A stretch of 64,000 nucleotides of DNA from a virus (IMGVR_UViG_3300034013_000240:3414-67413); one strand, 5' to 3'. Positions 1,772 through 59,199 are shown, counted from the first letter of the stretch. The notes: generated by a model from the sequence alone, not told the origin. Translations and numbers: made by a program.

Positions 1772-1996
1772 TTAAACAAAACCTAAATCTATAGACAAAC
1801 TTATTGTCATCACCATATTTCTATGCTCTATGTAGTATTTAGGGTGGTATTTCTTGATAAACACTTTTAAACTACCATCACTCTCACATCTTGATAGTAC
1901 ATCTAACTTTTCTTTTTTAGAGTATTTCTCTGTAAATAGGTTTTTAAAAACGTCTGAAACAAACTCTAAATTCTCATGATTGTGAACACTACACAT
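1772..1996 (-). CDS. hypothetical protein
   Basis: 74-aa ORF in a minus-strand operon. Confidence 0.55.
   Translation of the reverse strand: MCSVHNHENLEFVSDVFKNLFTEKYSKKEKLDVLSRCESDGSLKVFIKKYHPKYYIEHRNMVMTISLSIDLGFV
1976..1987 (+). repeat. 12-mer motif ATGATTGTGAAC, copy 1
   Basis: Exact match; see findings. Confidence 0.9.
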
Positions 1997-2015
1997 TGTA
2001 AAACTTATTACTCAG

Positions 2016-2243
2016 TCAATACTCTACTTCCTCTATTATCATTTCTTTTAACCTCTCGTTATCTTCTAGCAACCAAGTAAGGTCAATATCATTCCAAAGA
2101 ACCTCTGTTATTTTTACAGAGGACCTACTTCCTGGATAACCAGAGCCATCTCCATTGTGCATAACTTGGTTTTCTCCTTGAGTGTACTTAAATTCTATGT
2201 TTAACCACTCACCTCTATAGTTTAACCTAATTGAACTTTTCAT
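2016..2243 (-). CDS. hypothetical protein
   Basis: 75-aa ORF with ATGA-type coupling to the upstream gene; GDGSGYPG motif. Confidence 0.7.
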   Translation of the reverse strand: MKSSIRLNYRGEWLNIEFKYTQGENQVMHNGDGSGYPGSRSSVKITEVLWNDIDLTWLLEDNERLKEMIIEEVEY

Positions 2244-2512
2244 AATCCTTTTTCTTTTTTAAACATTTCTAATAGTTCTTCCAATACGTAGTATATAGTA
2301 GGCTTTTCTCTGCCTACATGCTTCATTACATCAAAATACAAAGACGATGTTTTACTATAATAAGTCTTGTCGCCATACATTAGAAAATTATCATCTTTCC
2401 ACTCTGCAAACTCAATAGCATAATCGTCCGATATAACTTCAAGTTGCTCCTCTCTTATCTGCAATCTAGGATTAGTATCTAGCCACTGTTTAAACTTTTC
2501 TTTTAGCTTCAT
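2240..2512 (-). CDS. hypothetical phage protein (…YAIEFAEW…LLEMFKKEKGL)
   Basis: 90-aa ORF, tightly packed. Confidence 0.7.
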   Translation of the reverse strand: MKLKEKFKQWLDTNPRLQIREEQLEVISDDYAIEFAEWKDDNFLMYGDKTYYSKTSSLYFDVMKHVGREKPTIYYVLEELLEMFKKEKGL

Positions 2513-2523
2513 CTTATTTCTTT

Positions 2524-2799
2524 TTAAATTGTTTTACAATTCCAATGAACCAATCCACCACTTTTAACAGCCATAAACAAATGACTATTAATATGTTCAA
2601 CTGAAATTACTTTCTTACAATTTTTACATATAACTTCTTCGCTATACAATTTCTTGTCTTGTTGTTGTTGCCATTTAGCGCCTTTTATAAAATTTCTTTT
2701 ACAAGCTAACTTAAAACTTTCTTTTGTTGGTTTATAGTTGTTTTCTAATTCATAGATTGCGTGTGATTTAGAAACTTCTTCAAGTGTTTCTTGTTCCAT
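2524..2799 (-). CDS. KQETLEE-family modular mini-protein (likely start MEQETLEEV at 2799)
   Basis: Shares QETLEEV, GAKWQQ and YSEEV blocks with its neighbours. Confidence 0.75.
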   Translation of the reverse strand: MEQETLEEVSKSHAIYELENNYKPTKESFKLACKRNFIKGAKWQQQQDKKLYSEEVICKNCKKVISVEHINSHLFMAVKSGGLVHWNCKTI

Positions 2800-2800
2800 A

Positions 2801-3043
2801 TTATTTCTTTTTATAGTTTTCAAACCATTTTTCTAAATATACAATATCGATTGGGTTAACTTCTATAATAGAATCCCTGTACATTTTTAAAATTTCTTTT
2901 ACTTCTTCCTCACTATACATCTGTTCTTGTTGCAGTTTAGTAAATAAAGTTACAATTTCAATAGAAGCAGTTTGAGCATCGGTAGAAGATATTATTCTTT
3001 GTATGTCTTTAGGTTTTACTTCTTCAAGTGTTTCTTGTTTCAT
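2801..3043 (-). CDS. KQETLEE-family modular mini-protein
   Basis: MKQETLEEV…QQEQMYSEEEV…WFENYKKK. Confidence 0.75.
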   Translation of the reverse strand: MKQETLEEVKPKDIQRIISSTDAQTASIEIVTLFTKLQQEQMYSEEEVKEILKMYRDSIIEVNPIDIVYLEKWFENYKKK

Positions 3044-3046
3044 ATC

Positions 3047-3313
3047 TTATTTCTTTTTAAATTGTTTAAACCAAATATCAATTACTGCCCAATTTGGTAT
3101 TTTATTATTTTGGACATCTCGATAAAAATTAACTAGAAACTCTAAAACTTCTTTGTTACTGTACTTATTCTTGTTTTGTTCTTGTTGCCATTTAGCACCT
3201 TCAACAAATCTTTCTCTTTCAAAATCAATTTCACAATTTCTATCAAACACACCATAACCTACTTCGTATGGATATAGTCTTTCAGCAACTTCCTCAAGTG
3301 TTTCTTGTTTCAT
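3047..3313 (-). CDS. KQETLEE-family modular mini-protein
   Basis: MKQETLEEV…GAKWQQEQ…YSNKEV…WFKQFKKK. Confidence 0.75.
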   Translation of the reverse strand: MKQETLEEVAERLYPYEVGYGVFDRNCEIDFERERFVEGAKWQQEQNKNKYSNKEVLEFLVNFYRDVQNNKIPNWAVIDIWFKQFKKK

Positions 3314-3316
3314 ATC

Positions 3317-4108
3317 TCACTTCTTTTTAAATTGTTCGAACCATTTATCAGTTTTAATGTCGCAAACTAAAGTTTCAAAATCATCATCTAATTCTGTTGA
3401 ATTGATAATATCTTTTTTAAATTTTTTCAACAACGTTATTACCTGCTCCTCACTATACATTCCTTCTTGCTTTTCAAAACCATACTTCTCAATTAATCTA
3501 ATTGCTTGAGATTCATTACCGCATTCAAGACAAAACTTAATGTGTTGCAATAAATCAAACTCAAGTGTTTCTTGTTTGGGTTCTTGTAGTTGTTTAGGTT
3601 TATCACTCCAAAATTGTTTATCATTTTTAGTCCCAAATACTCTTGTTTTAGGTTCTTCTTTTGGAATGATTTGACCTAATTCTAACATATCAATTTCTTT
3701 TGGAATGATTATTTCATAATCTTTAGTTGATTTTTCATTAACATACGAAATAAAATTAACAAACTCACAACTTGGATTCTTAACAAACCATTCTAAGAAC
3801 TCATCATCTATAGCTTGTACACCATCTTTGATTAAGTCTTGGTCTGTTGTTAGGATGATTTTTTTTGGTTCATGATTAAAAAATAATGCCATTGTATTTT
3901 TCCATAGGAAAACTCTTGTTCCTTGTATAACCCAAATGTCATTTTCAAACCCACTAATTTCTTCGTCAGAAGTGATGTAAATGTTTTGGTTTAAAGATTC
4001 TCCTTTCGATGTAGAATATTCTGGTTCAAAAAATAATTGACCTAAATTCATATAAATCCTACTTGGTTTGTCTGTTGGTGTTACCCATAAATTTCTTTTC
4101 TTTTCCAT
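3317..4108 (-). CDS. hypothetical protein with a C-terminal KQETLE module
   Basis: N-terminal domain (…QNIYITSDEEI…KKIILTTDQDLIKDGVQAIDDEFLEWFVKNPSCEFV) fused to PKQETLE…YSEEQV…WFEQFKKK. Confidence 0.8.
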   Translation of the reverse strand: MEKKRNLWVTPTDKPSRIYMNLGQLFFEPEYSTSKGESLNQNIYITSDEEISGFENDIWVIQGTRVFLWKNTMALFFNHEPKKIILTTDQDLIKDGVQAIDDEFLEWFVKNPSCEFVNFISYVNEKSTKDYEIIIPKEIDMLELGQIIPKEEPKTRVFGTKNDKQFWSDKPKQLQEPKQETLEFDLLQHIKFCLECGNESQAIRLIEKYGFEKQEGMYSEEQVITLLKKFKKDIINSTELDDDFETLVCDIKTDKWFEQFKKK

Positions 4109-4114
4109 ACAAAA

Positions 4115-4324
4115 TTAATTTATGATTGTGAACAATTCCCTCTCAATTAAATCAAGAGGGTTATTGATTGTATTGTAAATTTTCTCTGCTTGTTTAAAGG
4201 TTAAGTTGCTTTCCATTTGTATCTTTTTTATTTGATTGATACGTTCTTTGTACTCCATTTCTAAAGAGTGTGCAACATCAGCGATGCACACTCTGTTTGT
4301 ACGTGGTCTTTTTTGTTTAATCAT
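4115..4324 (-). CDS. hypothetical protein
   Basis: 69-aa ORF; weak similarity to 9130..9333 (R.R…E…N.T+.+A.K). Confidence 0.65.
   Translation of the reverse strand: MIKQKRPRTNRVCIADVAHSLEMEYKERINQIKKIQMESNLTFKQAEKIYNTINNPLDLIERELFTIIN
4122..4133 (+). repeat. 12-mer motif ATGATTGTGAAC, copy 2
   Basis: Exact match. Confidence 0.9.
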
Positions 4325-6065
4325 TAACTAATACCTCCTCTTCTTTCTTCTCATAAACTAATACACCTTCAATAGTTATACTCAATATCTCGTCAGTTAA
4401 CGTGTTTATTATTTGTTGCGCATCCATAGAACCTCTATCTATCTTTGTATCGAATTTGTACCCACCTACATATTCTATACTAACATCTACCAACTCATCA
4501 GTTATAAAGTAGTCTTCATTAGATATATCATTGTAATAAGACTCATCAACATGAACATCTTCCCCTATTGAGTTAATCCACACTGCATCATCACATAATA
4601 CATATTCCCCAACGTATCTTGATTTGCTGAAAGATATATAAGAAGTGTCTTCAAGAAGAACGTATCCAGAACCATCAATATGAACAACATCTGTTTTTAA
4701 ATACCATCTATCATCTCTATCGCTAAAAGCGCAATATCTCTCATTATAATAATCACCATCAATCAGAATGCAATCATCGTCGTCAGCATCCATTCTTTCA
4801 TCGCTTATCGCGCAAGTAACGTAATCACCATCAAATAACTCTGAGTTTCCATCCGTACAAGTTAACTCGTTGTCACCATAACTATTATTTAGCTCTATAT
4901 AATCATCATCTACATTATCTACATACTTAAATGTATCCATATATGGAGCTGTTCTTGCGTTTTTTAATGATATTTTTAATACTCTCTCGAACTCACTTAC
5001 TGAGTCAGTTTCCTTAATGTATTGACACCAAGTAATTGGGTCTGAATAACTTTGCTCTGCCTTCCATATAATGTCGTTTTCTTTAGCGTATTTTATGAAT
5101 TTATGAATCATTGAGTCACTACCATAAATCCTATCCATATACAATTGACCGCCTATCATCCATAACAAAGCTCTTCCAGTTACTTTGCCACTTTGATTTA
5201 AGTAAGTCAGCATAGAGATTACCTCTGGGTTGATTGAATAAAGACGTAGATAATCTTGGCAACTATCGTATCTCATACAGCTATTACCTAAACTACCAGT
5301 ACTAACCTCGCTTTCTACTTTATCCTCGTGATAATATTTTACTATATCATCCCCAGTAAATACAACAAACTCACCCTTATCAACATAATGAGCCACCAAC
5401 TTATTATTTAGTTCCTCGTAAAAACTATCAGAGTATTTGAATAGTGTTCTTACTTTCTTAATTACTCTTATTGGTTTAGCACTAGTTCTAGTTTCTTTCT
5501 TCCACGCATCGCCACTATCACTCATTATTGTATTCTTGTTTTTAGCTTGATAAGATACTAACAATTCTTGGTCTGTAGTTTTACAATGAAAATTTCTATC
5601 GTATGTTTTATTAAACACTTTATAGTCGTAAGCTATTAACTCAGCTCTAAACAACGACGACTGAATGTGTTTCATTTCACTAAGAATGTCAGTAATTGCA
5701 ACTTGAAACTTACGGCTAAACAATGAATATTTTATGTGTACGCCTCTATACTCTCTTGTTGTGCAAAAGTGTAATATATCGTTCAATGTTAATTCGTTTG
5801 GTAGGAAGCTGAGTTCTATTGTGTCAAGACCTATATTGTACCACTCTTTATCTTTAAGTTGATTATAAATATATTCATGTACTAAGGTTCTATCTGTACT
5901 TTCATTACTATAATCAACATAATACATTATTACCTCTCTAAAACCTCTAGGCGAAACTGCCATGACGTTATTCCTTAATAACTCCTTTAATGATTGTGAA
6001 ACCTCTTGTTCTCCAAAAGCATCTAGTATTCCTATCGCATCGAATATTGAAAATTTAATGTTCAT
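4317..6065 (-). CDS. conserved phage hypothetical protein (SCMR…GRALLW…YMDRIY…PYMDTF core plus acidic Cys/Asp-rich tail)
   Basis: 582-aa ORF; motif set recognised as recurring in phage proteins of unknown function. Confidence 0.75.
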   Translation of the reverse strand: MNIKFSIFDAIGILDAFGEQEVSQSLKELLRNNVMAVSPRGFREVIMYYVDYSNESTDRTLVHEYIYNQLKDKEWYNIGLDTIELSFLPNELTLNDILHFCTTREYRGVHIKYSLFSRKFQVAITDILSEMKHIQSSLFRAELIAYDYKVFNKTYDRNFHCKTTDQELLVSYQAKNKNTIMSDSGDAWKKETRTSAKPIRVIKKVRTLFKYSDSFYEELNNKLVAHYVDKGEFVVFTGDDIVKYYHEDKVESEVSTGSLGNSCMRYDSCQDYLRLYSINPEVISMLTYLNQSGKVTGRALLWMIGGQLYMDRIYGSDSMIHKFIKYAKENDIIWKAEQSYSDPITWCQYIKETDSVSEFERVLKISLKNARTAPYMDTFKYVDNVDDDYIELNNSYGDNELTCTDGNSELFDGDYVTCAISDERMDADDDDCILIDGDYYNERYCAFSDRDDRWYLKTDVVHIDGSGYVLLEDTSYISFSKSRYVGEYVLCDDAVWINSIGEDVHVDESYYNDISNEDYFITDELVDVSIEYVGGYKFDTKIDRGSMDAQQIINTLTDEILSITIEGVLVYEKKEEEVLVND

Positions 6066-6095
6066 CTTTTTTTTATTTTATTTGTTATTATTATT

Positions 6096-7163
6096 TTAAT
6101 GTTTCTCTCCGTAAGCTATATCTAGGTACTCATCCATAGTCATTGCGCTACCGCAATTAGAACACTCTATATCATTAGTAAATTCATCATGCACAGCTGA
6201 TGTATATCCGCAATTAAAGCACTCCATTTTACCCACAAAACTAATACCTAAATCTTCTAATTCGTCTCCAAAAACATCATCTACTTCAATAGATTGGTTT
6301 TCTTTTTTCCAATCATCAAAGGTTTTTATGTTTGTATTTGTTAAATACCCCCCAGTTCCATAGCTAGAATATCCATAACCATAACCACCGATATAACTCA
6401 TTCTGTCTTGCTCATTTATTCTCCACAACTTAGTTGATAACTCGTCAAAGAACTCCATGCACATCATGTAGGTATTATAAACATCTGAAATTGAAACCCA
6501 CTCGTTATCTGTGTGAGGCAAATAATAACCGCAAGACATATTTGCTACACATATCTCTGTACTCTCGGCAATCATCAACACATCAGTCATACCTCCATCT
6601 ACTTCTTGCCTTCCGTATTTAGTTAGTATTGGTTTTATAGCCTCACTAAATTCATCGCTATACAGTTTTGTCCAAGATATTTTACTAACAAAATCCTTAT
6701 TTCCTTTTCTATCGCACTCTAAAACAAAAGAGCAATCGTTAAAGAACGTAAAATCACATTGACTACTACCAACACAACCTATCTCTTCATCTACGAAAAA
6801 AGCAGCTTTAAAGTTATCGTAATGCTTAATCATTTGTAGGGTTATAAAGATACCTACTTTATCATCCCCACCAATACCAAGCCTATTGCAATCTTTTGTG
6901 TCTATTGCAAACAGTTTGTCTTTTGTTTGGTGTACCTCGTAGTTTGGGTTGTACATGTGAACCGTATCTATATGGCAAACCATAGATGGGTATATCTCTG
7001 CCTCTCCCTTGACTACATAAATATTCCCTACGTGGTCTCTATATGGACTTAAACCCATACTCTCTAGCTCTTTAAATATAAATCTAGACATGTGTCTAAA
7101 TCTACCGCTATACGATTGTATCTGCAATACTTTAATCAATTGTAACTCAAAATGTCTGTTCAT
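6096..7163 (-). CDS. Zn-dependent peptidase, M28/M20/M42-like, with C-terminal CxxC…CxxC zinc ribbon
   Basis: Metal-ligand pattern HIDTVH, GGDDKVG, DEEIG, DRKG, YYLPHTDNE. Confidence 0.8.
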   Translation of the reverse strand: MNRHFELQLIKVLQIQSYSGRFRHMSRFIFKELESMGLSPYRDHVGNIYVVKGEAEIYPSMVCHIDTVHMYNPNYEVHQTKDKLFAIDTKDCNRLGIGGDDKVGIFITLQMIKHYDNFKAAFFVDEEIGCVGSSQCDFTFFNDCSFVLECDRKGNKDFVSKISWTKLYSDEFSEAIKPILTKYGRQEVDGGMTDVLMIAESTEICVANMSCGYYLPHTDNEWVSISDVYNTYMMCMEFFDELSTKLWRINEQDRMSYIGGYGYGYSSYGTGGYLTNTNIKTFDDWKKENQSIEVDDVFGDELEDLGISFVGKMECFNCGYTSAVHDEFTNDIECSNCGSAMTMDEYLDIAYGEKH

Positions 7164-7198
7164 CTTTTTTTATTTTATTTGTTATTATTATTTTTAGC

Positions 7199-7345
7199 AC
7201 CCTATTTCTTACACTGGGAAGTGATAGCAGCCTCACTGTTCGTATTCACTGTTCTGAGATAAGAGTAGGGTCAAGCCGAGAACTCCCAATGGTTTGTAAT
7301 AGCGTATCTCGTACAGCTATATCCATTCTATATATTACTATATAG
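7199..7345 (-). ncRNA. putative structured leader/ncRNA (pseudoknot, GNRA hairpin) upstream of the peptidase
   Basis: GC-enriched intergenic region with several complementary segments (see findings). Confidence 0.45.
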
Positions 7346-7377
7346 TTTCTATCAGGGTTTAGTCTTTCTGATTTTGA

Positions 7378-7722
7378 TTACTTATCTAAAGAATCATATT
7401 CTCCTTGCAAGAAAGCTATTTTCTCTAAGTGAGAATTAAGAGCGTCTTGAGCATCGGTTAGTACGTTTTTAGCGTCTAAAAGACTTCTTACATACACATT
7501 TCTGTCTGTAATCAATTTACCGTTGTTTACCCTAGCTATTCTAAGGTTTTCTTGAGCGTACTCAACTGTATCTTCTAGTGTGATTGTATCACCATTTAAA
7601 GATGCAATTTGTGTCTTCAAAGCACTGTCTGCTTGTCTTAGGATTTTTTGACCTGTTGCTTCAGCGTTATCACCTGCGATAATTGCTACTACTTCTTTTA
7701 CGAAACTTTTCATTTTGTTCAT
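7378..7722 (-). CDS. hypothetical coiled-coil protein
   Basis: 114-aa helical, Ala/Leu-rich ORF. Confidence 0.75.
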   Translation of the reverse strand: MNKMKSFVKEVVAIIAGDNAEATGQKILRQADSALKTQIASLNGDTITLEDTVEYAQENLRIARVNNGKLITDRNVYVRSLLDAKNVLTDAQDALNSHLEKIAFLQGEYDSLDK

Positions 7723-7732
7723 GTTTTAAAGA

Positions 7733-8779
7733 TTAAAATTTAATTGATTTATTTTTAGTGCGTAGTTTTAAATTTACAGAGTGCACTGGCTCTATAAAAG
7801 TTTTATGATTGTGAACAATATCACTTTGCTGTTGAGTCTTTTCAAAGTTATAAACTTGTTCGTGTTTATTGTTCTCTGTTATAAATTGCTTCTCGTACTT
7901 ATCTTTAGTTGATTTAACCCAACTACTTCCCTCATATTCTTCAAGAACTTTTTTCCAAGTCCACGAACTATGAATATCGACTGAATTAAAATCAAAATCT
8001 GACGTTTTAAATATTGGATAACCATTGTTTGCTTTAATGGTTTTTGACCATCCACTAAGGTTTAAACACTCTACATATTCATAAACACTATCATCTGTTG
8101 ATTCAGGATGATAATCTATAGGCATTAATTCATATCTTATATTTAGATATTTTTCACTTAAAGCACATGTGCAAGTGTATGATTTTTGACTAGGGAAATC
8201 AACGGTACGACTAGACTTGATAATACCTATCTCTCCAGCCCTTACTGAGCCGTAATTTGGATAATTAATTAAAGCTTTTAAGTATCTACCTATATGTTGT
8301 GATAAGTCATCAAAATACTCTACAACATCGCTAGTCTTAGATACTTGGTCTTCGGGTAGTTTAATTATTGAAGCTCCTTGACGATTAACCATATCTATAG
8401 AGTAATTATTAAATCTTCCATTTATAACTCCGTAGAATACGTGTATATTATTCGGACTATAAAAATTACCTATATGTCTTCTAGTATCAATACCAAGTGA
8501 TTGAAAATATTTTATTATTCTTTCTCCGTGTTCTTCAGATGTGTTTTCTATAACAATATTATCTACCACCACTTCTTTTTTAACATATTCGTTTGCTTTA
8601 AACCACCATCCAGACATTCCAAAACCTCTATTCTTATCGCAATGTTCATTATATTCATCAGGTATGTCCGCCCCCATATAAAAACTCATGTCAAGAGTCC
8701 ATGATACAGGTATGCCACGAGAAGTATTTATTTCACTTGCGTCATACTCGTCTAACCTTTTAAATCTATATTTAGCCAT
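7733..8779 (-). CDS. hypothetical multi-module protein
   Basis: 348-aa ORF in the operon. Confidence 0.75.
   Translation of the reverse strand: MAKYRFKRLDEYDASEINTSRGIPVSWTLDMSFYMGADIPDEYNEHCDKNRGFGMSGWWFKANEYVKKEVVVDNIVIENTSEEHGERIIKYFQSLGIDTRRHIGNFYSPNNIHVFYGVINGRFNNYSIDMVNRQGASIIKLPEDQVSKTSDVVEYFDDLSQHIGRYLKALINYPNYGSVRAGEIGIIKSSRTVDFPSQKSYTCTCALSEKYLNIRYELMPIDYHPESTDDSVYEYVECLNLSGWSKTIKANNGYPIFKTSDFDFNSVDIHSSWTWKKVLEEYEGSSWVKSTKDKYEKQFITENNKHEQVYNFEKTQQQSDIVHNHKTFIEPVHSVNLKLRTKNKSIKF
7805..7816 (+). repeat. 12-mer motif ATGATTGTGAAC, copy 3
   Basis: Exact match. Confidence 0.9.
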
Positions 8780-8781
8780 AT

Positions 8782-8991
8782 CTAAAAGTTTTTAGTTTTA
8801 TGATTGTGAACGTCGTCCAATACTAAAATTAGAGGTATCCACCCAATAAATAGATTTAATCCAATTACAGCATTACAAGTCATTGCTTCTTTATACGTCA
8901 TATCAGATAATAGATATACCATAAGACCAAAGAACATCCACGTTATAAGAAGCGTAGATACTCCAACTATTAAAAGTTTAGTATTTTTCAT
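8782..8991 (-). CDS. small membrane protein (2 TM helices)
   Basis: Two hydrophobic stretches. Confidence 0.7.
   Translation of the reverse strand: MKNTKLLIVGVSTLLITWMFFGLMVYLLSDMTYKEAMTCNAVIGLNLFIGWIPLILVLDDVHNHKTKNF
8800..8811 (+). repeat. 12-mer motif ATGATTGTGAAC, copy 4
   Basis: Exact match. Confidence 0.9.
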
Positions 8992-9019
8992 GTTTATTAT
9001 TTGGTTTTTAAATTAACAT

Positions 9020-9106
9020 ACACATAGATATATATATTTATATATATTGTATTAATATCCTTTAACTTTTCTTATATACCCCCTTTAACTTTTCTTATAG
9101 GGGGTA
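9020..9106. repeat. AT tract + 2x TTTAACTTTTCTTATA + TACCCCC/GGGGGTA hairpin (element A)
   Basis: 16-mer at 9061-9076 and 9084-9099; stem arms 9077-9083 and 9100-9106; inverted sister element at 42528-42618. Confidence 0.85.
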
Positions 9107-9129
9107 CACGACATTTTAAAAGCAATACA

Positions 9130-9333
9130 CTAAACCATTCGCATCTCTCTAGCCATACAACTCCATTTAAGGTTGTTTTTAAGGACTTTCTTTGCTTCTT
9201 GGTATGTAATATTGTTTTCTGAAATAATCTCTCTTAAACGCTCCGTAATCAACTCACGTCTTCTAACTTCTTTTTTGTGTAGTTCAAGACCAATAGCCTC
9301 AACATCTACCTTTACTTTTATTCTTGCTCTCAT
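9130..9333 (-). CDS. hypothetical basic protein
   Basis: 67-aa ORF in the operon. Confidence 0.65.
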   Translation of the reverse strand: MRARIKVKVDVEAIGLELHKKEVRRRELITERLREIISENNITYQEAKKVLKNNLKWSCMAREMRMV

Positions 9334-9336
9334 AAC

Positions 9337-9525
9337 TTATTCTTTTGAGGTTGCACCAACTACTATACAAGCCAGTAGATTAATCATTACTAACAACATG
9401 TATATATGCCAGTTTGGGTAGTTTTCCCTACTATTTTCTAAAGTTCCTATGAACATCAAGCATATAAAAGCAATTAGGCTCAAATATAGCCACTTCTCCC
9501 AAGCATTATAATTAAATTTAAACAT
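9337..9525 (-). CDS. small membrane protein (2 TM helices)
   Basis: Two hydrophobic segments. Confidence 0.65.
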   Translation of the reverse strand: MFKFNYNAWEKWLYLSLIAFICLMFIGTLENSRENYPNWHIYMLLVMINLLACIVVGATSKE

Positions 9526-9528
9526 AGC

Positions 9529-9726
9529 TTAATCTTTTAGTATGAACATTTTTAATATTTCCAAATCGTGTTGAGTTGCCAACACCTCATGCGTTAAGTC
9601 TGATAATTGTTTTCTAATTCTTTGGTTTTCAGCCACTAGTTTAGTAGTCAATTCAACCAATAGTCCAATAGCTTCTGAACTTAATAAAACTGCATCTGTT
9701 AATTGTTTCTTACTTAATTTATCCAT
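9529..9726 (-). CDS. small coiled-coil hypothetical protein
   Basis: 65-aa Leu-rich ORF with A-rich leader. Confidence 0.65.
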   Translation of the reverse strand: MDKLSKKQLTDAVLLSSEAIGLLVELTTKLVAENQRIRKQLSDLTHEVLATQHDLEILKMFILKD

Positions 9727-9762
9727 CTTTATATTATTTTAAGTTAATGCAATATTGCATAG

Positions 9763-9811
9763 TCAATAGAAACGGAATTGAACCGCTTATGATTGTGAAC
9801 CTACCTATTGA
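9763..9811 (-). ncRNA. tRNA-like minihelix (acceptor-like stem + T-arm) containing 12-mer motif copy 5 (9789-9800)
   Basis: Minus strand: TCAATAGG-TAGGTTCACAATCATA-AGCGG-TTCAATT-CCGTT-TCTATTGA. Confidence 0.55.
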
Positions 9812-9819
9812 AATATAAA

Positions 9820-9851
9820 AGTCCTTTGCTAAAATTAATTAACAAAGGACT
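9820..9851. terminator. hairpin AGTCCTTTG…CAAAGGACT, probable intrinsic terminator or processing site
   Basis: 9-bp perfect inverted repeat followed by TTTTAT on the minus strand. Confidence 0.6.
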
Positions 9852-10292
9852 GTATATTTTTATTTATGAATTGAACATTTTTTGCCCTTACTTTTTTGGT
9901 TTTGATAAACCGCATTTATGTAGGTATTGACTAAAACTATACTTAACAATAGTATATAAAAAGCCCTGTAATTTATATGCGTTCCGTACTTATATCACTA
10001 AGGAGGCTTAACGCTTTACAGCCAATGGACTATGGACGCAAATAACCATGTAATTTTTTCAAATTGCGTCTTTTTTGTACGGTTTAAAATTATCATATTT
10101 TTATAATATTCGTACCAATAAAATCATCATCACTTTATTAAAAAACTTGTGCAATTGCACGAAGTTACATTTATGCGTTTATACTATTGTAATAAACAAA
10201 TGTTAATAAGAGGTAAAAATTAAGAACGTGCCGAACTCTTCAGGTATAATTTAACGGCTATTATACGACGGCTAAAAATATAGCCGTTTCGA

Positions 10293-10838
10293 TTATTTTT
10301 TTGTTTTTAAGGCTTTTTTTGTTTCGTTTACTGTATTTTCAGCTATTACTAAATTAATCGCCGTATTGTAGTCTATATTCTTTTTTATAGCCTTACCTAC
10401 AATTTTTTGCACCAATTGAGAAAATGAATATTCACTATATAAACCCGATTTTGACAATTTTACATTTTTAATAAGGAGCTTCAATAGTTCCTCGTTTATA
10501 AACTCACCTTTTCTAGTTTGCTTCGTAACAAAATTTATAAAGTTCTTACATTTCTCAATTAAATTGATATTTTCAGCGAGAGAATAATTTTTATCATTTA
10601 ACTCTTCTACATACTTCTTGGTATTTAATAGAACTTTTAAACCGTCTTTTTTAAATTCTAAAATAGAACGTTTCTTTTGTTGACTAACTAAGTGAGAAAA
10701 TTGAGGGTTTAACAATCTTTTTTGCTTTGCCTTTTCTTTTGATAGAATAGCTTTGTTAACTTGTTCGGTTGTTAATTCTACTACATTAGTAGTCATTTCG
10801 ATTTGATTTTTTGCGATTTGTTTTTTTGTTGTTGCCAT
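10293..10838 (-). CDS. highly basic hypothetical protein (first gene of the leftward arm)
   Basis: 181-aa Lys-rich ORF downstream of a TATATTTG promoter. Confidence 0.75.
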   Translation of the reverse strand: MATTKKQIAKNQIEMTTNVVELTTEQVNKAILSKEKAKQKRLLNPQFSHLVSQQKKRSILEFKKDGLKVLLNTKKYVEELNDKNYSLAENINLIEKCKNFINFVTKQTRKGEFINEELLKLLIKNVKLSKSGLYSEYSFSQLVQKIVGKAIKKNIDYNTAINLVIAENTVNETKKALKTKK

Positions 10839-10924
10839 TTTTATATTATTTATATTATTAAGTCAAAAATAACTATATATATTTCCATTATATATATTTC
10901 CGTTTTTTTGATGGTGTAAACGTA

Positions 10925-10932
10925 CAAATATA
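10925..10932 (-). promoter_or_regulatory. -7 promoter element TATATTTG driving the leftward arm
   Basis: TAnnTTTG match; direct repeat TATATATATTTCC x2 (10874-10901) in the leader. Confidence 0.55.
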
Positions 10933-11724
10933 GTTTTGATTGACAATGCACTTTTTTAAACTTTAACATATTACTAAGAATAATTCAAAGAAAATCTTAA
11001 TTTATTGCATTATTATCAATTTATTTGTTAAATTATTGAAGCGATTTTTATGTATATTTTTATTTTTATATATATCAATTTAGCATGTAATCCAGTATTT
11101 GCACTATTTTTAAGGTTTAAAAACTATAAAAACACAAACTATTTTAATAATGTATTTGTATAAATTGTATTGTATTTATTAAGTTGGTTAACGCATTGGT
11201 ATTGAATTTATAAACTATAAAAACACAATAGTATAAAAGTGCAAAAGTTTAATTAATTACTTTGTAGTTAGTTTGCGGATGTAACTTCAACTATAAACCT
11301 ATTCAAAAAAAATAGTCAACATAAAAATAATTTTATAACCAAAGTACAACCCAACAAAACAAATTTTTTTATCTGAAGACGCATTTTTAAAAATAGTTGT
11401 TTTAAACCTTGAAAAAATAATAGTTATAAAAAGGTAAAATGTTTTTTTGATTTTATCAATTTTTTTAGGGTGGAGGGATAAAAGGATTGGGTTTCTGTGG
11501 GGAGATCTGATCGTAGAATGGGGGGATAACCCAAAATATCCACATATCTCATATCTTTAAAAATAACTGTAGGGGTAAAGTATGTGTTTATATTGGTTTT
11601 AAAAAAAAAACATACAACATCGGTATCAACCATTCTATAAGATTATCTTTATATGATGAGTGACACCAGTCTTGTAGGTTTTAAAAAAGAATATATTTAT
11701 ATATACAATATGTAAAATATGTTG

Positions 11725-11732
11725 TATATTTG
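11725..11732 (+). promoter_or_regulatory. -7 promoter element TATATTTG (near-leaderless)
   Basis: 5 nt upstream of ATG 11738. Confidence 0.6.
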
Positions 11733-11737
11733 CACTT

Positions 11738-51200: not shown

Positions 51201-52724
51201 GTAGATGTTCCTAAAGATTCTGGAAACAAAGCTCCAAATAGAATACCTTCTGAGATTGTCAATGAAATATATAAAATGTTAAACAAGACTGGTATAGAGG
51301 ATGCTAAGTTGTTATCTGAGGAGATAGCTAAAGCTATGATTGAAACTCCAGACAAGACTATCGCAAAACCACTTTCGTTAGGTATATTTGATAGAGTGTT
51401 TGAGAAGTTAACTGGAGAAGAGCCAGAATACAGAAAGATAGAGAATGGTGATGTTGATTATTTAGACAAACATAAGGAAAATATTAAAGAAGCCGTATTC
51501 TCTGCTAATAAAACAGTAGCTATGATGATTGGTAGTAAAAATCCATTTGAAATGGTTTCTAATAATATGGTTAATATTAAAGACCCTACATATAAAAAAC
51601 TTTATACTCAATTTAATTCGTTCTTTACAAATCACTCAAAATCACAAGCTACAGCTAATTATGTAGAGATACAAAAACTTTTTAGAACGAACGAGTATGA
51701 GACTGCGGCAGATAAACTTCAGGCTTATAAAACAATAGCATCTGTTATAGCTTCTCAGTATGCTTATAAGTCAGCAATGAGGGCTCTTCAAGGATATGTT
51801 GGGACTGCTGCTGCTAGAGCATTAGGGTACACTATATTTGAAGACGAGGAAGATAAGGAAGGTATTTTTGCTAGAGAGTTGACAGGATCTGTTTTAGATG
51901 TGATGAACGCCTCTTCAGGAAATATAAGTAAAATACCTTCTAATATGGCTATTGGTTATTTAGATACAAAGTACGGTAGAGATATTGGATTAAGACAAGG
52001 GTTAAGAGGTTATGGAACTTCAGTAGGTTTTGGGTACGACCCTAAGAAATCTATAGATGATAACGTTAAAAACTCTTTGTTATCCGCTTCTGGTAGTTAT
52101 GGTGTGGCTAATAAAGATATTAACTCTTTAGTTGATAGTTTTATGGATGGAGATGTTGCTAATATTTTACTAAAAGGAGCTTCTTTAGCTTCTCCGATAC
52201 CGTTATTGAAAGATGTAAACTCAGCTAAATCTTACATAAAGTATAACACAATACCTAGTATTGAAGACCAAAGAGAAATATATAAGAGTGGTAGCTCTAA
52301 AGATATTAAAGAGTTAGAAAACAGTATATCGAATTATGTAAATACAATTGTTTACAATAAATACCTTAAAGCATACAAAGAGCGTGGAAGATTTAACTCA
52401 AGTGAAATGTCTAGTATAAGAAAAGAGTTAGTGGATAATATACACGTATTAACAAAAGGAGATTATGACAAACTATTGAATGATGCTGGTGAAAAAGCAT
52501 TAATTAGAATAAAAGTAAGAACTGGGAAAGTAAGTAAAGATGCTGAATCTTATTTACAGATGAAAGACTCGGAAATAAAATCAGATTTAGTCATTAGATA
52601 TAGAGATGCTAATGATGAAGAAAAGAAAAAATTAGTTAAGGTTATGAATGAGCTAGCCGACTTGAATAAAATAAGTCAAAGCATAGTAAATGAAATAAAA
52701 AGGATTGAGATAAAATCTAAGTAA
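45258..52724 (+). CDS. giant internal virion (cargo/ejection) protein
   Basis: 2488 aa, largely helical, last gene of the structural arm; N-terminal DEFGIP repeat x2. Confidence 0.7.
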   Translation: MEELDEFGIPIKKIGVDEFGIPLKKKDVSQQVGPKTAKVSTTSVGKKSLLDTVGQKRDAASVSSNGKSKIPEGKLSKLKGEFDESVRNKPKTIKQKIQGEEMGLLTKPKSSIGVTKVQDQNRFVATKKKEEEHDFNFFGVDSLKKMDETGKIKYANDEVEYDVDKNKFYFFLNENLGNAKMKKRNDYINNFELQEIEDEYNELKNGGGFWDKTKKVIESGIVNMFDEAYSDKSSYEEAIAKSKDLFYDERQEVVSEAKAKGESLTQAQINARIEKTFKDRRINEILSKKRQDTGRNLTDAEQYALSKDVISNSSKLSEKHKEKSENVNSVYVTTKGLLDEKKSIEDIYNSDPTLITKEQEDRYKDISEKIQLNNAYIKATMLELNDAEKKIKTAQEEVADYTIENSRLNEFFKRVTASGVSFLGSTAEFAGKYGGTGLSIMPGGKNLGEGVKMLSEKVSDKLSGYASDIRTGKDYDGFKIGGLPETKEVNSVGDFVNQITEVVGDNTFLVAGLTATGPTGIGLMAVEMAGDKSREIRNEKQEFNKLSEEAKVKGEKSFDYNGEKYKVGDELYGDFSSYALPLAWGATSVLPMAKQLKYLKGAKSAIQAVERESPELIKKSLMTKVKDGTKDYIGHSLSLAKDLKIMSLSQAALDDIVGKDVDYFKVASDMATIRDSFVLHGMNKAAAMSVSKAAKPYMTTEEVNTIDGNANLIFDLTNRLRDPSIESSDKAIIKSQLDRLVKESDGFIGGVLDRMSEMSDVDYSKVISLAKESSNLRKEASDIQASSFTKTEKAYALEKVKKEYIENEKKLRDLRVNYTKRTDGFYGLSDQEKIKLKERAATELKEKRGDEENFTINDREITIKATEIYDRENNVEENKTTEEDDIVNNNINTGLGIAKSYSSLDSVPEFMRPLANKSSFGEQKIGMFGKKEKIQMYNVTATAEELQVAYDNFYGKKEINKKDNPYYYNTDPERGELELRPLSIPEGYTSIKEIQNGFELDAWKKQKTKPTETTINEKENEVERLRDEEQKEYESVDLNDKVKLGEIYSRYDKLISPLLKEIEASKAKEETSVELPEKTTEEKIAELETELETIKDDNDPRITEIDKEISDLEEVKNIEANKPETVVAKEEPLTTPEGIDIATEKSNEIESTEAIESTSTEENINDSKEDVKERKPKQTVEGLKEENIDLKNQLTDLFKGAVDALKITERSFKDKIRDVNNAVSKATELFNAELKNKKLTPAQHRNILNKLSKLSKSSNSKTLESNLNDVVNSIEKASYKANKVELLSGINRSIKKAISNLSNTRLGGNSGNIEIFKKLLSIDPKNISDRYVQEYKDVVDLLADPLKIKQSGISLLDIERRAREVLYEYGFDKTNLENASSKYSDYIHENDLEMTSEGFEEVIGKMKTKDLLSEEEYQSLLDNKSKIIPRKSTERTSKEPYTSEERTEIKKSVKSSIKEYKDGAVKDVDFINNEEKEVVDSVFNAMDRIGDEFMDSLSDKDLARVENTIALLNQGIVQGDLNFFVNNKIKSYEKSQKVKPKIKEIDTKWRSLIIIPKIKKTLFDVVDFLKTDYRKDKNLSKIEQADRVLQTAVDKAFGITGDVLYNNLLAEQASNAGKDQNYRLAMKNKYVNPIIKFLDKTYRGDKIKQVESMMRIDMFAYQRMFENGSPGENHRKISDIVKSIKSKSNNLYSKKEVDFITKELEKFAELDFDSDRYYETLTDAEKTIIRKMDEFYESDITNKAVATSKFGSGKTLNLAKFYRPVSMVFDGETQVSLEEVIKNSNDEFFKPSFKAGNLEKKEGGLETEGMIINIKDPLFAMEKYIDDISLRYHNLDSVRVVNDALKTIRESSDIKGDSKSERIVKYFQDIVNKDVENLVAGSVGAQIFSGNSEVAIASNKILSNASVNKLIGISKVVSESYSNIVRTSASLSTYVKGIGVYTELIKGNLDIDKIFYNIGFSQTGRTFGDIFDFKIKKDSANVDVPKDSGNKAPNRIPSEIVNEIYKMLNKTGIEDAKLLSEEIAKAMIETPDKTIAKPLSLGIFDRVFEKLTGEEPEYRKIENGDVDYLDKHKENIKEAVFSANKTVAMMIGSKNPFEMVSNNMVNIKDPTYKKLYTQFNSFFTNHSKSQATANYVEIQKLFRTNEYETAADKLQAYKTIASVIASQYAYKSAMRALQGYVGTAAARALGYTIFEDEEDKEGIFARELTGSVLDVMNASSGNISKIPSNMAIGYLDTKYGRDIGLRQGLRGYGTSVGFGYDPKKSIDDNVKNSLLSASGSYGVANKDINSLVDSFMDGDVANILLKGASLASPIPLLKDVNSAKSYIKYNTIPSIEDQREIYKSGSSKDIKELENSISNYVNTIVYNKYLKAYKERGRFNSSEMSSIRKELVDNIHVLTKGDYDKLLNDAGEKALIRIKVRTGKVSKDAESYLQMKDSEIKSDLVIRYRDANDEEKKKLVKVMNELADLNKISQSIVNEIKRIEIKSK

Positions 52725-52727: not shown

Positions 52728-52752
52728 AAAACCCCTCTATATTGAGGGGTTT
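52728..52752. terminator. bidirectional terminator at the convergence of the two arms
   Basis: AAACCCCTC-tatatt-GAGGGGTTT. Confidence 0.75.
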
Positions 52753-53186
52753 AATATTTTAATTACTTCACTTAAAACGAAATCGCATTGACCTTGATTT
52801 CTAGGTGTGAATAATATGTAATCTAAATTGTTATCAGCTATCCATTTCTTAAATAACTTAAATCTCATTTGAAAAACATCTGTAGCTAAACCTTTACACT
52901 CTATAATTATTCTTTGATTTCCATTCTCAATAATAAAGTCTGGTTTGTAAGTTACGGCTAAATGGTTTTTACCTCCCTTATTAGTAAGAGATGTTTTACT
53001 ACTCATAGTTTTTTCGTAAGATGGATTTGGAAAATAAAATTTATCTATGATTGTGAACGATTCTTCTTCATATTTAGCTTTTATACCATAATCATCTAAT
53101 ACTTTAAACATGTACATCTCTAGGCGACTTTGAAAGTTCTTGCCTTTGTAGGTTGTTTTTTTTGCGTTTATTAATTTTCTACCCAT
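52737..53186 (-). CDS. PD-(D/E)XK endonuclease (DUF1064 / T7 endo I-like)
   Basis: 'FQSRLE…YEEESF…YKPDFII…IIECKG'; 12-mer copy at 53047-53058; TACCTTTG 4 nt before the ATG. Confidence 0.8.
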   Translation of the reverse strand: MGRKLINAKKTTYKGKNFQSRLEMYMFKVLDDYGIKAKYEEESFTIIDKFYFPNPSYEKTMSSKTSLTNKGGKNHLAVTYKPDFIIENGNQRIIIECKGLATDVFQMRFKLFKKWIADNNLDYILFTPRNQGQCDFVLSEVIKILNPSI

Positions 53187-53215
53187 AAGGCAAAGGTAAA
53201 CATATTTATTATTAT

Positions 53216-54727: not shown

Positions 54728-54728
54728 T

Positions 54729-56579: not shown

Positions 56580-56580
56580 T

Positions 56581-56970
56581 TTATGAAAATTCTTGACTTA
56601 CAGTATTTAAGTAATCTTTACTGAAGCCAGTTAATACTCCTTTATTTATAAAAAGATTTAGCTTTTTATTTTGTATTTTACTTACCATTGACTTATAATT
56701 ATCAATAATTGAGTCACTGAAATGAAATTCAATTATTTTGTCCTCCTTCATTTTTTTCTGACCAAGTATTATGTCAAGATATAAATCAGTAGGTAATCCG
56801 CAATTAGTTATAAAAACATTGTTTGGCTCTAAGTATTTAAAAACCTCGCAAACCATAACGGTTGTTCCGTGAGATATTTGGTCGATTGGTTTTTTAGATA
56901 AATCAATAGATATAACTATGTTTTCTTTTTTATTTTTACTGTTTTCCTCAGCACTAGTGTTGCTTACCAT
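56581..56970 (-). CDS. hypothetical protein
   Basis: 129-aa ORF in the operon. Confidence 0.65.
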   Translation of the reverse strand: MVSNTSAEENSKNKKENIVISIDLSKKPIDQISHGTTVMVCEVFKYLEPNNVFITNCGLPTDLYLDIILGQKKMKEDKIIEFHFSDSIIDNYKSMVSKIQNKKLNLFINKGVLTGFSKDYLNTVSQEFS

Positions 56971-57239
56971 ACTGTTTTGTCTTGTATATCAACAACTAAA
57001 TCAACGAGTTGCCTATCTGATATTGTTACATAATCATCGTCCTTGTGTACGATTAAATCATATACATCAATCTTTAGTAATTCATACCCTTCTTTTTTAT
57101 GGTTACAAACAACATTAACAACTACATTGAAGTCGCACTTCATTCCGTTTTTTAATGGAAAGTTAACTACTTTCTCGTCACAATGTCCAGCTATGCCGTT
57201 CCATTTTAAATTTACGTGTAAATCTTTTTTTAATTTCAT
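56964..57239 (-). CDS. hypothetical protein
   Basis: 91-aa ORF in the operon. Confidence 0.65.
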   Translation of the reverse strand: MKLKKDLHVNLKWNGIAGHCDEKVVNFPLKNGMKCDFNVVVNVVCNHKKEGYELLKIDVYDLIVHKDDDYVTISDRQLVDLVVDIQDKTVW

Positions 57240-57240
57240 G

Positions 57241-57600
57241 TTATTTTTTTTTATTTATTTTTGATTCTACAATTATACAATTATTGTTATTCAAGTACTC
57301 ATTTAATGTTGTGTTTACTCTACTTAAACTCAAATCTAAAGAATGTGCAATATCTATAGATGTATTTGTTTTGTGAGTTAGGAAGAAATCTATTATATGT
57401 ATCTTTTGTTTATTGTATTTAGAGTTTTTGTTGTTATAGGACCTTTTAAAGTTCTCTAATTCAGTAACCTCTTCCTCGTTAAACCAAAACTTTTTACGTA
57501 CTAACGTTCCAACACCTAATCTTCTAGCTCTTGACACAATAACTTGCGGACTTGTTTTAAGCATATTGCTTATAGCTCTAGTATCTACTAACTCTCGCAT
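57241..57600 (-). CDS. HTH DNA-binding protein
   Basis: 'TSIDIAHSLDLSLSRVNTTLNEYL' and an N-terminal HTH-like segment. Confidence 0.65.
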   Translation of the reverse strand: MRELVDTRAISNMLKTSPQVIVSRARRLGVGTLVRKKFWFNEEEVTELENFKRSYNNKNSKYNKQKIHIIDFFLTHKTNTSIDIAHSLDLSLSRVNTTLNEYLNNNNCIIVESKINKKK

Positions 57601-57603
57601 TCT

Positions 57604-59199
57604 TTAAGATTTGAATTTGTTTTTAATTATGTGAACATGTTGAGCTTTACCATTTGGATATATAACTACATTAGAATGCAACCAAGAACTAGCTCCTTTA
57701 TTATAACCCACCCTAAGATGAGTTAGTGTTCCTACGGATAAATGACCGTCCTCTCTGCATGGTTGATGTGTATGCCCAGTAATATTCTTGGTATTTAAGT
57801 TTTTAAACTGGATAACACCACCTCTACTTCCGTTAGACCCGATATGTCCATGTATAGCACATTCAAAACCAGAGATAGTAAGGCTATCATTTATACCTAG
57901 ACAATGAACATTTTTTACCATCCTGGCATTAAGGTATGCCGGTATAACACCTCTCTTGTCTTTTGATTCAATCATTAGATTAACTAACTTTATATAAGCC
58001 TCTCTATTTGGTGATTTTCTCCAATCAACATCATTCATCCATCTATCTAAAAACTCGTCGTGATTACTTCTTACCATAACGAAGTTGTAATCATTATACT
58101 CGTTAAAGAAATCAACCATCTGAGATAACTCTTTTATTAAGTTATCAGAACCATCTTTCTCTCTCTCTAAAAGTATCAATGGATTTGCTCTCTCGTGATG
58201 AGAAATACTGTGACCATTGAAAACATCATGCACTATAATCTCCTTTGTTTTCACTAAATCAGCTAATTCAAAAGATACCTTTAACACATCTTCGTTTGTC
58301 TCTCCAAGATGTAAATCTCCAAATACAATAGCTTCAGCTCCGTTATGATTGTGAACACTACCTTCATCAACAAATAAATTCAAGTCGTAAAACGATCCAT
58401 TGTTATCAGCTTGAACTTGTCTAACGTGAAACACATCACCATCTAACTCTACTAAAACAAATCCTAGTGTATGATGAAACTCTCCTTTTTTACCAGCTTT
58501 CGTGTCTGTATAGTTATTGACTGTTACTGCTCCAGTTGTTAATAGTAATTTGTTTGGATAACCATCTAATACCGGTAGGGATTTTAAATGTACTCTAGGA
58601 TGTCCTATAATACAGCTCTCAAGACCAGTTAACCCATTGAACCCTGATAACGGAGTCGAAGCTGTTGGTTGAATCCTAACGTCTGAAACCACACATAAAT
58701 ATTCGTGAATATTGTGTCTGTTTGCATCTAAGTAAGGAATCACTCTTTTGTGCCAAGATAATGTTTTATTATCCTCTTTATCTTTCATGCTTCTACTAGA
58801 ATGCAATGATGTTGGATTTCTATACCTACCTGCCGTTATTAATATTTCGGCATCAAGGTATTTTGAATAAGCCTCTATATTATTTAAAAACCCATGATGA
58901 ACCTCAGTTTCTGATTGAGCCCAAGAGATGATAAATCTTTTCTTGGTTTTATCGAACTGCTTAATCATAGCGTTTTTAAATTCATCAGACTCTTCTAAAT
59001 TACATCCAGCTACATTGTTAGTTATAGCTCTCTTGTGTAACATCTTAGATACTGTTCTTCTTGATGTGTCAGAGTATGTATATCCAAACTCTTCACATAT
59101 TTTTTTAGTGCTTGATGTGATATTCTCACCTTCATCAAGCAAAGTTTTTACTTTAAGTATAAAATCTTTATTATACTTCTTGTCTTTTTTAAATTTCAT
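57604..59199 (-). CDS. large phage metallophosphoesterase-domain protein
   Basis: GDLH, HD, SNHDEF, HGH.G, GHTH motifs; 12-mer copy at 58345-58356. Confidence 0.75.
   Translation of the reverse strand: MKFKKDKKYNKDFILKVKTLLDEGENITSSTKKICEEFGYTYSDTSRRTVSKMLHKRAITNNVAGCNLEESDEFKNAMIKQFDKTKKRFIISWAQSETEVHHGFLNNIEAYSKYLDAEILITAGRYRNPTSLHSSRSMKDKEDNKTLSWHKRVIPYLDANRHNIHEYLCVVSDVRIQPTASTPLSGFNGLTGLESCIIGHPRVHLKSLPVLDGYPNKLLLTTGAVTVNNYTDTKAGKKGEFHHTLGFVLVELDGDVFHVRQVQADNNGSFYDLNLFVDEGSVHNHNGAEAIVFGDLHLGETNEDVLKVSFELADLVKTKEIIVHDVFNGHSISHHERANPLILLEREKDGSDNLIKELSQMVDFFNEYNDYNFVMVRSNHDEFLDRWMNDVDWRKSPNREAYIKLVNLMIESKDKRGVIPAYLNARMVKNVHCLGINDSLTISGFECAIHGHIGSNGSRGGVIQFKNLNTKNITGHTHQPCREDGHLSVGTLTHLRVGYNKGASSWLHSNVVIYPNGKAQHVHIIKNKFKS

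Follow-up and report, generated by a model that had tools for sequence, protein, structure and literature searches.

The localized nicks of phage T5 and of the phiKMV-like phages (CGACNNNNNCCTACTCCGG) are site-specific interruptions of one DNA strand, as cited in PMC3517423 and bioRxiv 10.1101/619015. For phage tf, the available excerpts of PMC3517423 give 14 nicks, all in the top strand and within the 9-mer TACTRTGMC; by our own count from the position table of that paper, 11 of the 14 sites fall in the early half of the genome and 3 in the late half. In a cluster of 61 phages, one strand carries a net 9.0 copies of the tf-like motif per genome; the copies are concentrated on one side and belong mostly to the coding strand, according to the motif survey in PMC11780129, parts of which still call the purpose of phage nicks unknown. 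For a conserved motif in KP34-like phages, the same ambiguity between nick site and promoter was noted by the authors in the relevant part of PMC4411677. Finally, the PeSLs of T4-type phages, as outlined in PMC2839356, are small conserved elements between non-essential open reading frames (ORFs) of hyperplastic regions, where recombination shuffles modules. The DNA considered here is a 64,000-nucleotide (nt) stretch, hereafter the window, which covers bases 3414-67413 of the 67,413-bp IMG/VR virus record IMGVR_UViG_3300034013_000240 and contains the 12-mer ATGATTGTGAAC at dispersed places. This word is an oriented, nucleotide-level signal of a phage clade. Among the functions weighed below, a site-specific nick site like those of T5, tf, and phiKMV, doubling as a joint for cassette exchange, ranks first, as a tentative choice.

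The word, its strand, and the clade that carries it

The exact 12-mer is found seven times on the plus strand (at 1976, 4122, 7805, 8800, 9789, 53047, and 58345) and never on the other one, in the window as well as in the whole record, and T precedes six of the seven copies. Markov models of order 1 to 4 predict 0.005 to 0.008 copies per strand, and no exact match appeared in any of 100 dinucleotide shuffles of the window. Together with the one-mismatch copies at 5990 (...GAAA) and 42763 (GTG...), matches with at most one mismatch number nine, versus 0.58 expected. A preliminary description, made from the sequence alone, had listed all these copies, the preceding T, and the strand polarity; the k-mer counts against the Markov background agree with it, showing strong enrichment and no reverse-strand copies. 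The 11-mer ATGATTGTGAA, for which the same models predict 0.03 to 0.05 copies per strand, is present in the whole genome at a ratio of 9:0, its ninth copy being located at genome positions 1808-1818, outside the window. On the gene-sense (minus) strand, the invariant core reads TTCACAATCAT. One-mismatch variants number two reverse and one forward in the complete genome G000 and four reverse and none forward in the complete relative G003.

All nine core copies lie inside the minus-strand gene block (P = 2e-4 under an even spread), separated by intervals of ∼1.0, 1.0, 1.8, 1.9, 2.1, 3.6, 7.0, and 5.3 kb. This leftward block comprises the first 11.7 kb of the window, the 3.4 kb before it, and window positions 52.7-63.5 kb, which are contiguous on the circle and make up 25.9 kb of 66.9 kb, the genome length used for the counts, or 39% of the genome. 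It contains a hypervariable arm of small ORFs, followed by genes for ERF, a YqaJ-like exonuclease, an SSB-like ORF, a replication protein, ThyX, primase, a C5 methylase, the A1-like DNA transfer protein (PHROG family phrog_1745, E = 1e-150), RNA repair, and a DUF1064/endonuclease-I-like resolvase. The rightward 41-kb late block contains the structural genes, with host-type TAnnTTTG boxes upstream; the motif is unlike both TTG and TAnnTTTG of the host promoter, the difference from TAnnTTTG having been noted originally. The matches in the window are as follows.

9789-9800, minus strand: motif copy with the minus reading GTTCACAATCAT; intergenic, 62 nt upstream of the ATG at 9726 and 20 nt downstream of the arm's only strong intrinsic terminator (9851-9820); occupies the unpaired linker of a tRNA-like minihelix
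8800-8811, minus strand: junction copy of the motif; the ATG of a 348-amino-acid (aa) ORF (7733-8779) follows 20 nt downstream, and the copy itself is within the last codons of a 69-aa ORF (8782-8991)
7805-7816, minus strand: motif copy located 72 nt short of the stop codon of the 348-aa ORF; the following ATG (7722) is 82 nt downstream
5990-6001, minus strand: variant copy TTTCACAATCAT with the core intact, 65 nt into a 582-aa ORF as listed or, if an in-frame ATG at 5963 is taken instead, 26 nt ahead of that codon
4122-4133, minus strand: junction copy of the motif, followed 13 nt downstream by the ATG of a 263-aa ORF (3317-4108); reads FTIIN-stop at the end of a 69-aa ORF (4115-4324), with a hairpin directly upstream
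1976-1987, minus strand: motif copy 28 nt past the stop of the ORF at 2016-2243 and 10 nt into a listed 74-aa ORF (1772-1996); in a strain of run X4, it has G>A at the variable first base only and an unchanged core
58345-58356, minus strand: intragenic motif copy; the gene (57604-59199) encodes the A1-like DNA transfer protein, and the copy falls in a variable loop ahead of the metallophosphatase domain
53047-53058, minus strand: motif copy (FTII) inside the DUF1064/endonuclease-I-like resolvase gene (52737-53186), with which the leftward block ends; no gene lies downstream
42763-42774, minus strand: one-mismatch match GTTCACAATCAC, lying antisense within a late gene of the plus strand (42658-43050)

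The match at 42763 is probably not a functional copy. The G003 homologue of this late gene has the same variant (TTCACAATCAC), which is uninformative, as it lies in a generally conserved stretch. The same one-base variant, TTCACAATCAC, is also found about 260 nt into the primase ORF of L323 (G005), where G003, G007, and G011 have the motif.

The word is conserved throughout the clade. In 18 stretches, representing this phage and clade members, there are 56 forward copies and no reverse ones, all co-oriented with the genes. The counts are 9:0 in each of the complete genomes G000 and G003 and 5:0 in the complete genome G018, as well as 6:0, 7:0, and 2:0 in the fragments G001, G007, and G002, respectively. 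The late block has no copy in the three complete genomes. The 11-mer core is identical in all 56 copies, even though the amino acid identity of core proteins among the genomes is only ∼66-73%; the extended consensus is R-TTCACAATCAT-N-A, with R before the core in 54 of the 56 copies and A at position +2 in 49. Metagenome contigs recruited with an alignment of a 136-aa protein provided 25 copies, all of them forward, and further copies are located on phage-like contigs within a Flavobacterium metagenome-assembled genome (MAG). The polarity seen in the preliminary description is thus real, but it amounts to co-orientation with one unidirectional gene block, in which strand and gene direction are inseparable, rather than to a polarity independent of gene direction.

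Copies inside genes occupy tolerant places in all three frames, including synonymous sites. Their readings on the minus strand are VHNH, FTII, and SQS; a single copy is intergenic. In the resolvase gene, the FTII codons TTC ACA ATC are invariant in five lineages, whereas most other conserved codons vary synonymously. In the A1-like protein, the residues HNH are confined to motif carriers: the site reads VHNH here and IHNH in G001 but VMLH, IHLH, or IDDH in relatives without the motif. A copy in the linker of the SSB-like ORF is shared by this genome and eight clade sequences (G001, G003, L126/L153 (G002, G007), L308, L311, L312, L313, and L315), and other conserved intragenic copies are found in the primase gene (SQS) and at the N terminus of ERF. 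The G003 junction homologous to 4122 has an SQS-stop reading followed by a different gene. The three frames, the change from FTIIN-stop to SQS-stop at homologous junctions, and the conservation at synonymous sites uphold the earlier view that the signal is carried by nucleotides and not by a peptide.

The complete genomes of the relatives G008 to G010 (60-65% identity in A1) contain no copy, and Elemo phage NC_062743 has no such word, its commonest 10-mer being the host-type TATCTTTGCA. A 14-mer scan of viral_contigs returned, for the best 80 of 116 stretches, a single match each and was uninformative; scans of viral_contigs with single proteins (a peptidase and the 136-aa protein) found nothing, and the scan with an ERF alignment yielded 80 loci, all from other phages, with one exact copy in total. 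Repeats of distant A1 relatives were rejected as analogues of the word: they consist of tandem iterons in L154, of repeats within coding sequence in L200, and of host-like promoters in L156.

The closest cultured relatives of the phage are the Flavobacterium phages vB_FspP_elemo, whose A1-like protein is 57% identical, and a 69% identical GroEL is found on a contig binned with a Flavobacterium MAG. Near-identical DNA occurs in lake and freshwater metagenomes, the lake-water runs X1 and X2 containing 0.97-0.99 of the sampled words; no RNA run is among those listed, and a megablast search of window positions 1-12000 against a phage collection gave no match. The genome record starts and ends with a 475-bp direct repeat (genome positions 1-475 and 66939-67413, the latter being window positions 63526-64000), which sits within a ThyX-like ORF. 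This repeat probably arose when the assembly of a circular or permuted genome overlapped itself, although the record is given as linear in IMG/VR.

Gene borders, homology breaks, and contig ends

Places just upstream of gene starts are strongly enriched in the word. At most 25 nt separate 19 of the 56 copies from a downstream ORF start (ORFs of at least 30 aa), which is true of 5.6% of random places in the same regions (P = 8e-11, homologous copies not being independent). Measured by eye, the distances from the motif end to the ATG are 5, 5, 5, 5, 6, 6, 6, 7, 7, 8, 8, 8, 9, 13 nt, and so on, with a minimum of 5; the ORF script gave one distance of 2, which was not traced. The remaining two-thirds or so have no start within 25 nt. 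An SQS-stop ending is shared by at least six unrelated upstream ORFs, their TAA being composed of the last T of the motif and the following AA. A hairpin directly precedes only four copies (window 4122 and 9789, G001 6356, and L306), and the first copy in G003 is located 12 nt upstream of a terminator-like hairpin. There is no host-type box between the terminator at 9851-9820 and the next ATG.

Homology between relatives is lost at the word. Sequences L308 and L309 are ∼97% identical until 2 to 3 nt beyond the motif and unrelated from there on, at two junctions. Among the clade stretches, 12 of 218 ends of internal blastn high-scoring segment pairs are located within −20 to +30 nt of a copy, versus 1.25% expected (P = 2e-5, with reciprocal pairs counted twice). 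The arm is an array of co-oriented small cassettes separated by the motif site; as with PeSLs, the motif is placed between the ORFs of a hyperplastic region and marks the exchange of modules.

The arm is highly mosaic in nature. At 1.7-10.8 kb, it is nearly without homologues, even in G003. Lake strains show numerous deletions or replacements in window positions 1-12000 (e.g., joints 1761>10838, 2907>10642, and 561>1152), and contig depth shifts from segment to segment across the arm. A 16-mer, TCAAGTGTTTCTTGTT, is repeated four times on one strand within a tandem array of small genes (window 2780, 3024, 3294, and 3561; spacing of ∼250-270 nt). A perfect 12-bp palindrome, TGCAATATTGCA, at 9748-9759 lies between the motif copy at 9789 and the ATG at 9726 and is a possible operator. 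Host-type −7 boxes are found 5 and 4 nt from the ATG at 11725-11740 (TATATTTGcacttATG) and 53186-53198 (TACCTTTGccttATG), respectively, and this short spacing at 11725 and 53198 suggests leaderless mRNAs in the phage.

The tRNA-like minihelix is located ahead of the first small gene of the arm in this phage and in G003 (window 9763-9811 and L204 10500-10548, both on the minus strand). It consists of an acceptor-like stem and a T-arm with a TTCRATT loop and has no D or anticodon arms; ARAGORN calls neither. The tRNA scan gave no hits in the window or in five relative loci, and the Rfam scan of the window gave no families. The proposal that a small RNA from 9763-9811 targets the motif was rejected, and so was the view of the motif as a part of this RNA, as the copy there has the same sense as all others, no complementary copy exists, and the linker of the G003 minihelix lacks the motif.

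Metagenomic contig ends also fall on the word. Logan contigs of four lake runs were mapped to window positions 1-12000, and uncovered parts were not used as evidence. Among the near-identical pieces listed for runs X2 and X3 (12 with no mismatch and one with 2), there are 22 internal ends, 6 of which are within a motif ±1 nt (P = 8e-9) and 3 of which are on the identical bond (P = 2e-7), namely, X2 at 5991 and 8802 and X3 at 7806. This bond lies between AT and GATTGTGAAC on the plus strand, that is, between TTCACAATC and AT on the sense strand. Two other Logan ends at copy 8800 are at 8812 (X2) and 8811 (X3). In addition, two assembled contigs, G006 (at the primase copy) and the JGI contig L316 (at a junction copy), begin exactly with the AT of this bond, which brings the ends between TTCACAATC and AT to five, from at least four data sets. 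Since joints between haplotypes would fall outside the shared 11-mer, ends inside the word point to a physical discontinuity, as far as contig sequences can indicate one.

What the word may be

As stated above, the first-ranked reading is a programmed nick site that doubles as an exchange joint. According to this proposal, 5'-R-TTCACAATCAT-N-A-3' on the sense strand of the leftward genes for early functions and DNA metabolism would be recognised by a DNA enzyme of the clade that is specific for both sequence and strand. The enzyme would leave a programmed single-strand interruption between C and A (TTCACAATC^AT) in the packaged DNA. Such a nick would be recombinogenic and each copy would offer an identical short homology, so that the sites could have become joints for the exchange of cassettes in the hypervariable arm; many copies would be exactly between genes because they serve as such joints. 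The same short asymmetric consensus at every site (56 of 56) and its restriction to one strand (56:0) are features of known nick sites. A nick explains the exact word, the single strand, conservation where no gene follows, and the contig ends, which may reflect a physical break; the sense strand is the presumed cut strand. The preliminary description had offered a nick as one of several functions, and the five ends on one bond lend it indirect support.

Several observations weigh against this reading. For the G006 and L316 ends, the upstream half of the motif is absent from the contig and is inferred from homologous sites in relatives. Depth in X2 is 13.1 versus 26.7 across the break at 8800, and therefore strain mosaicism contributes there. 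Contigs span copies 1976, 7805, and 9789 in X2 and copies 1976 and 9789 in X3, and a one-strand nick should merely halve the crossing cover in most library types. The empty late block is not predicted by a pure DNA-strand signal. The tf-like nick motif has, in the available parts of PMC11780129, 12% of its copies outside coding sequence, approximately the non-coding share of the host genome, and no start enrichment; the word studied here, in contrast, is strongly enriched just upstream of start codons. Finally, no nickase was found: the candidate nucleases are an HNH protein (560-1147, minus strand; a weak match), the DUF1064/endonuclease-I-like protein (52737-53186), and a T5orf172/MUG113-HTH protein (12653-13255, plus strand), none of which is tied to the motif.

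The protein that reads the motif was searched for by presence and absence in G003 versus G005 and G008 to G010. The T5orf172-HTH protein and the 181-aa product of the first gene have no match in the motif-bearing G003, another point against the proposed enzyme, and both were rejected as readers. A 303-aa protein, found nowhere in the records searched, was rejected as well. The Atlas search returned viral hypothetical proteins only. A 182-aa protein (15828-16376, minus strand), encoded by the lone reverse-oriented gene in the late block with its own host-type box (TACATTTGca at 16407), is present in four of the five relative records searched, with no match in the incomplete G005. Profile hits in PDB (E = 0.0065) and a predicted structure (pLDDT of 89.8), for which all top Foldseek hits belong to the MarR family at E values of 3e-3 or worse, point to a putative MarR-like winged-helix regulator. 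Proteins of this fold usually bind palindromes, so this one is a poor candidate reader.

A more specific idea, which must be regarded as a long shot, is that standing nicks in the non-template strand just upstream of cassettes serve as entry points for switching on downstream transcription and are hot spots at which cassettes are swapped between co-infecting phages. Comparably, the sliding clamp, which in vitro activates the late promoters of T4, is loaded at a nick in the non-transcribed strand. Programmed phage nicks have remained, to our knowledge, unexplained for 50 years; if the idea is true, they would have a concrete function, in a Bacteroidota phage group.

Next to the nick site, the second-ranked reading is a phage-specific, single-block promoter, a possible explanation that we consider less probable. 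The 11-mer would replace the −10/−7 element, and its reader would be either a phage polymerase or the host RNA polymerase under the direction of a phage factor, neither of them recognised so far. Delayed-early or middle transcripts, including leaderless ones, would start from it along the leftward arm. Being the sole conserved stretch amid variable cassettes, it would in addition link recombining modules, a role that PeSLs have in T4-type phages (a precedent drawn from excerpts of PMC2839356). A promoter, another function offered in the preliminary description, fits the 19 copies just upstream of starts, the co-orientation of all 56 copies with genes, and their absence from the late block with its host-type TAnnTTTG(ca) boxes. 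The 5-nt floor in spacing resembles that of the host-type boxes (4 and 5 nt at 53198 and 11725), copy 9789 is located behind the arm's only strong terminator with no host-type box before the next ATG, and the four hairpins directly upstream of copies are in line with such a role. However, the most widely conserved copy is that of the resolvase, whose gene ends the block and leaves nothing downstream to transcribe, and therefore a gene-start signal does not explain it. Neither does a promoter account for the two-thirds of copies far from any start, the first G003 copy ahead of a terminator-like hairpin, the five contig ends on one bond, or the complete invariance of the core, which most sigma-dependent elements do not show.

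No phage RNA polymerase or sigma factor was recognized among the 40 proteins scanned with Pfam and/or PHROGs, some small ORFs being outside the scan. The pattern DFDxD is found in the crAss-like virion RNA polymerase gp66. A giant 2,488-aa ORF (45258-52724, plus strand) contains a single DFDSD at residue 1711 and has no PHROG family and no PDB sequence hit; tblastn finds no homologue of it in the G003 loci, although G003 shares the motif. A scan for sigma-70-type sites in window positions 1-12000 gave fewer sites than in shuffles.

It is unlikely that the word is the crossover site of a site-specific cassette-exchange system, similar to an integron core site, with cleavage between C and AT during recombination only and no standing nick in the virion. 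Such a system would account for the homology breaks at the motif, the arrangement of the arm as co-oriented small cassettes with a site between them, and the ends on one bond. Recombinant joints, however, would restore the full 11-mer and leave no contig ends inside it, and cassette borders are not found at the conserved copies within essential genes. The search for a recombinase or integrase was negative, and the recombination genes that were recognised are those for ERF, the YqaJ-like exonuclease, the weak HNH match, and the resolvase.

Slightly more doubtful still is an RNA-level signal in an early polycistronic mRNA, which could be an endoribonuclease site, a site for a translational regulator at gene starts, or a termination-reinitiation signal. 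The location of all copies on the sense strand, the many copies 5 to 25 nt upstream of an AUG, the recurrent stop codon formed with the motif in at least six unrelated ORFs, and a core devoid of G would suit this reading, but copy 9789 directly behind a terminator would not, and DNA contig ends and copies deep in genes are left unexplained. Pairing with 16S rRNA was rejected: the word lacks complementarity to Flavobacterium 16S rRNA, the duplex energy being −9.1 kcal/mol versus −9.6 ± 1.4 for shuffled motifs (119 of 200 shuffles as good or better), and the one Flavobacterium 16S rRNA searched (L221) gave no match within two mismatches.

A polar host word borrowed by the phage (Chi-like, KOPS-like, or a DnaA box), suggested by the short oriented form and by the likeness of its TTCACA to the final part of the DnaA box consensus, is highly improbable, and the Chi-like site of the preliminary description falls with it, since the 3.0-Mb Flavobacterium MAG (the true host may differ) has only 4+4 copies (1+1 for the reversed control word), at least four of them on phage-like contigs (C14, with 3 copies, and C38), the conserved part extends 3', away from the DnaA-box part, and the complete relatives G008 to G010 have no copy.

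Significance and comparison with known systems

Should the sites be nicked, programmed single-strand interruptions would extend to a clade without cultured members that is related to the Flavobacterium podophages (Elemovirus relatives) and would be tied to gene borders and module exchange, a testable function in which nicks may drive the swapping of cassettes. Should they be promoters, they would represent a transcription class in Bacteroidota phages without a recognisable polymerase or sigma factor. Either way, the 14-nt word is a clade marker in lake metagenomes. The literature on phage nick consensus sequences yielded Proteobacteria phages only, with no search aimed at Flavobacterium or Bacteroidota.

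T4 late promoters (TATAAATA, read by gp55) are single-block and nearly invariant, lie a few bases before the transcript start, and are often located in the end of the preceding gene. The word described here shares with them the single block, the near invariance, and the frequent location in the end of the preceding gene. It differs in that no gp55-like factor was recognised in this phage and in that its placement at starts comes from sequence alone. Compared to the PeSLs, which combine a sigma-70-like promoter with a terminator stem-loop in the excerpts of PMC2839356, the motif is unlike the host promoter and has a hairpin at only four copies. Like T5, this phage encodes an A1-like DNA transfer protein, whose homologue is also present in relatives without the motif. 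In contrast to the word analyzed here, the major nicks of T5 are few and spread over the genome and those of the phiKMV group number four, as far as the cited descriptions go, and the consensus sequences are unrelated. The tf and LUZ24-like Pseudomonas phages (TACT/RTGMC and WACTRTGAC), as portrayed in the parts of the papers cited above, share with this clade a short, exact, asymmetric word that is confined to one strand, at ∼9 to 14 copies per genome. In both, the copies favor the early half and, for the most part, the coding strand, and they are kept across relatives with little DNA identity. The clade differs from them in the word itself (11 to 14 nt), the phage group, the host phylum, and the sequence-based nature of the finding, as well as in having approximately one-third of its copies just upstream of gene starts and none in the late block.

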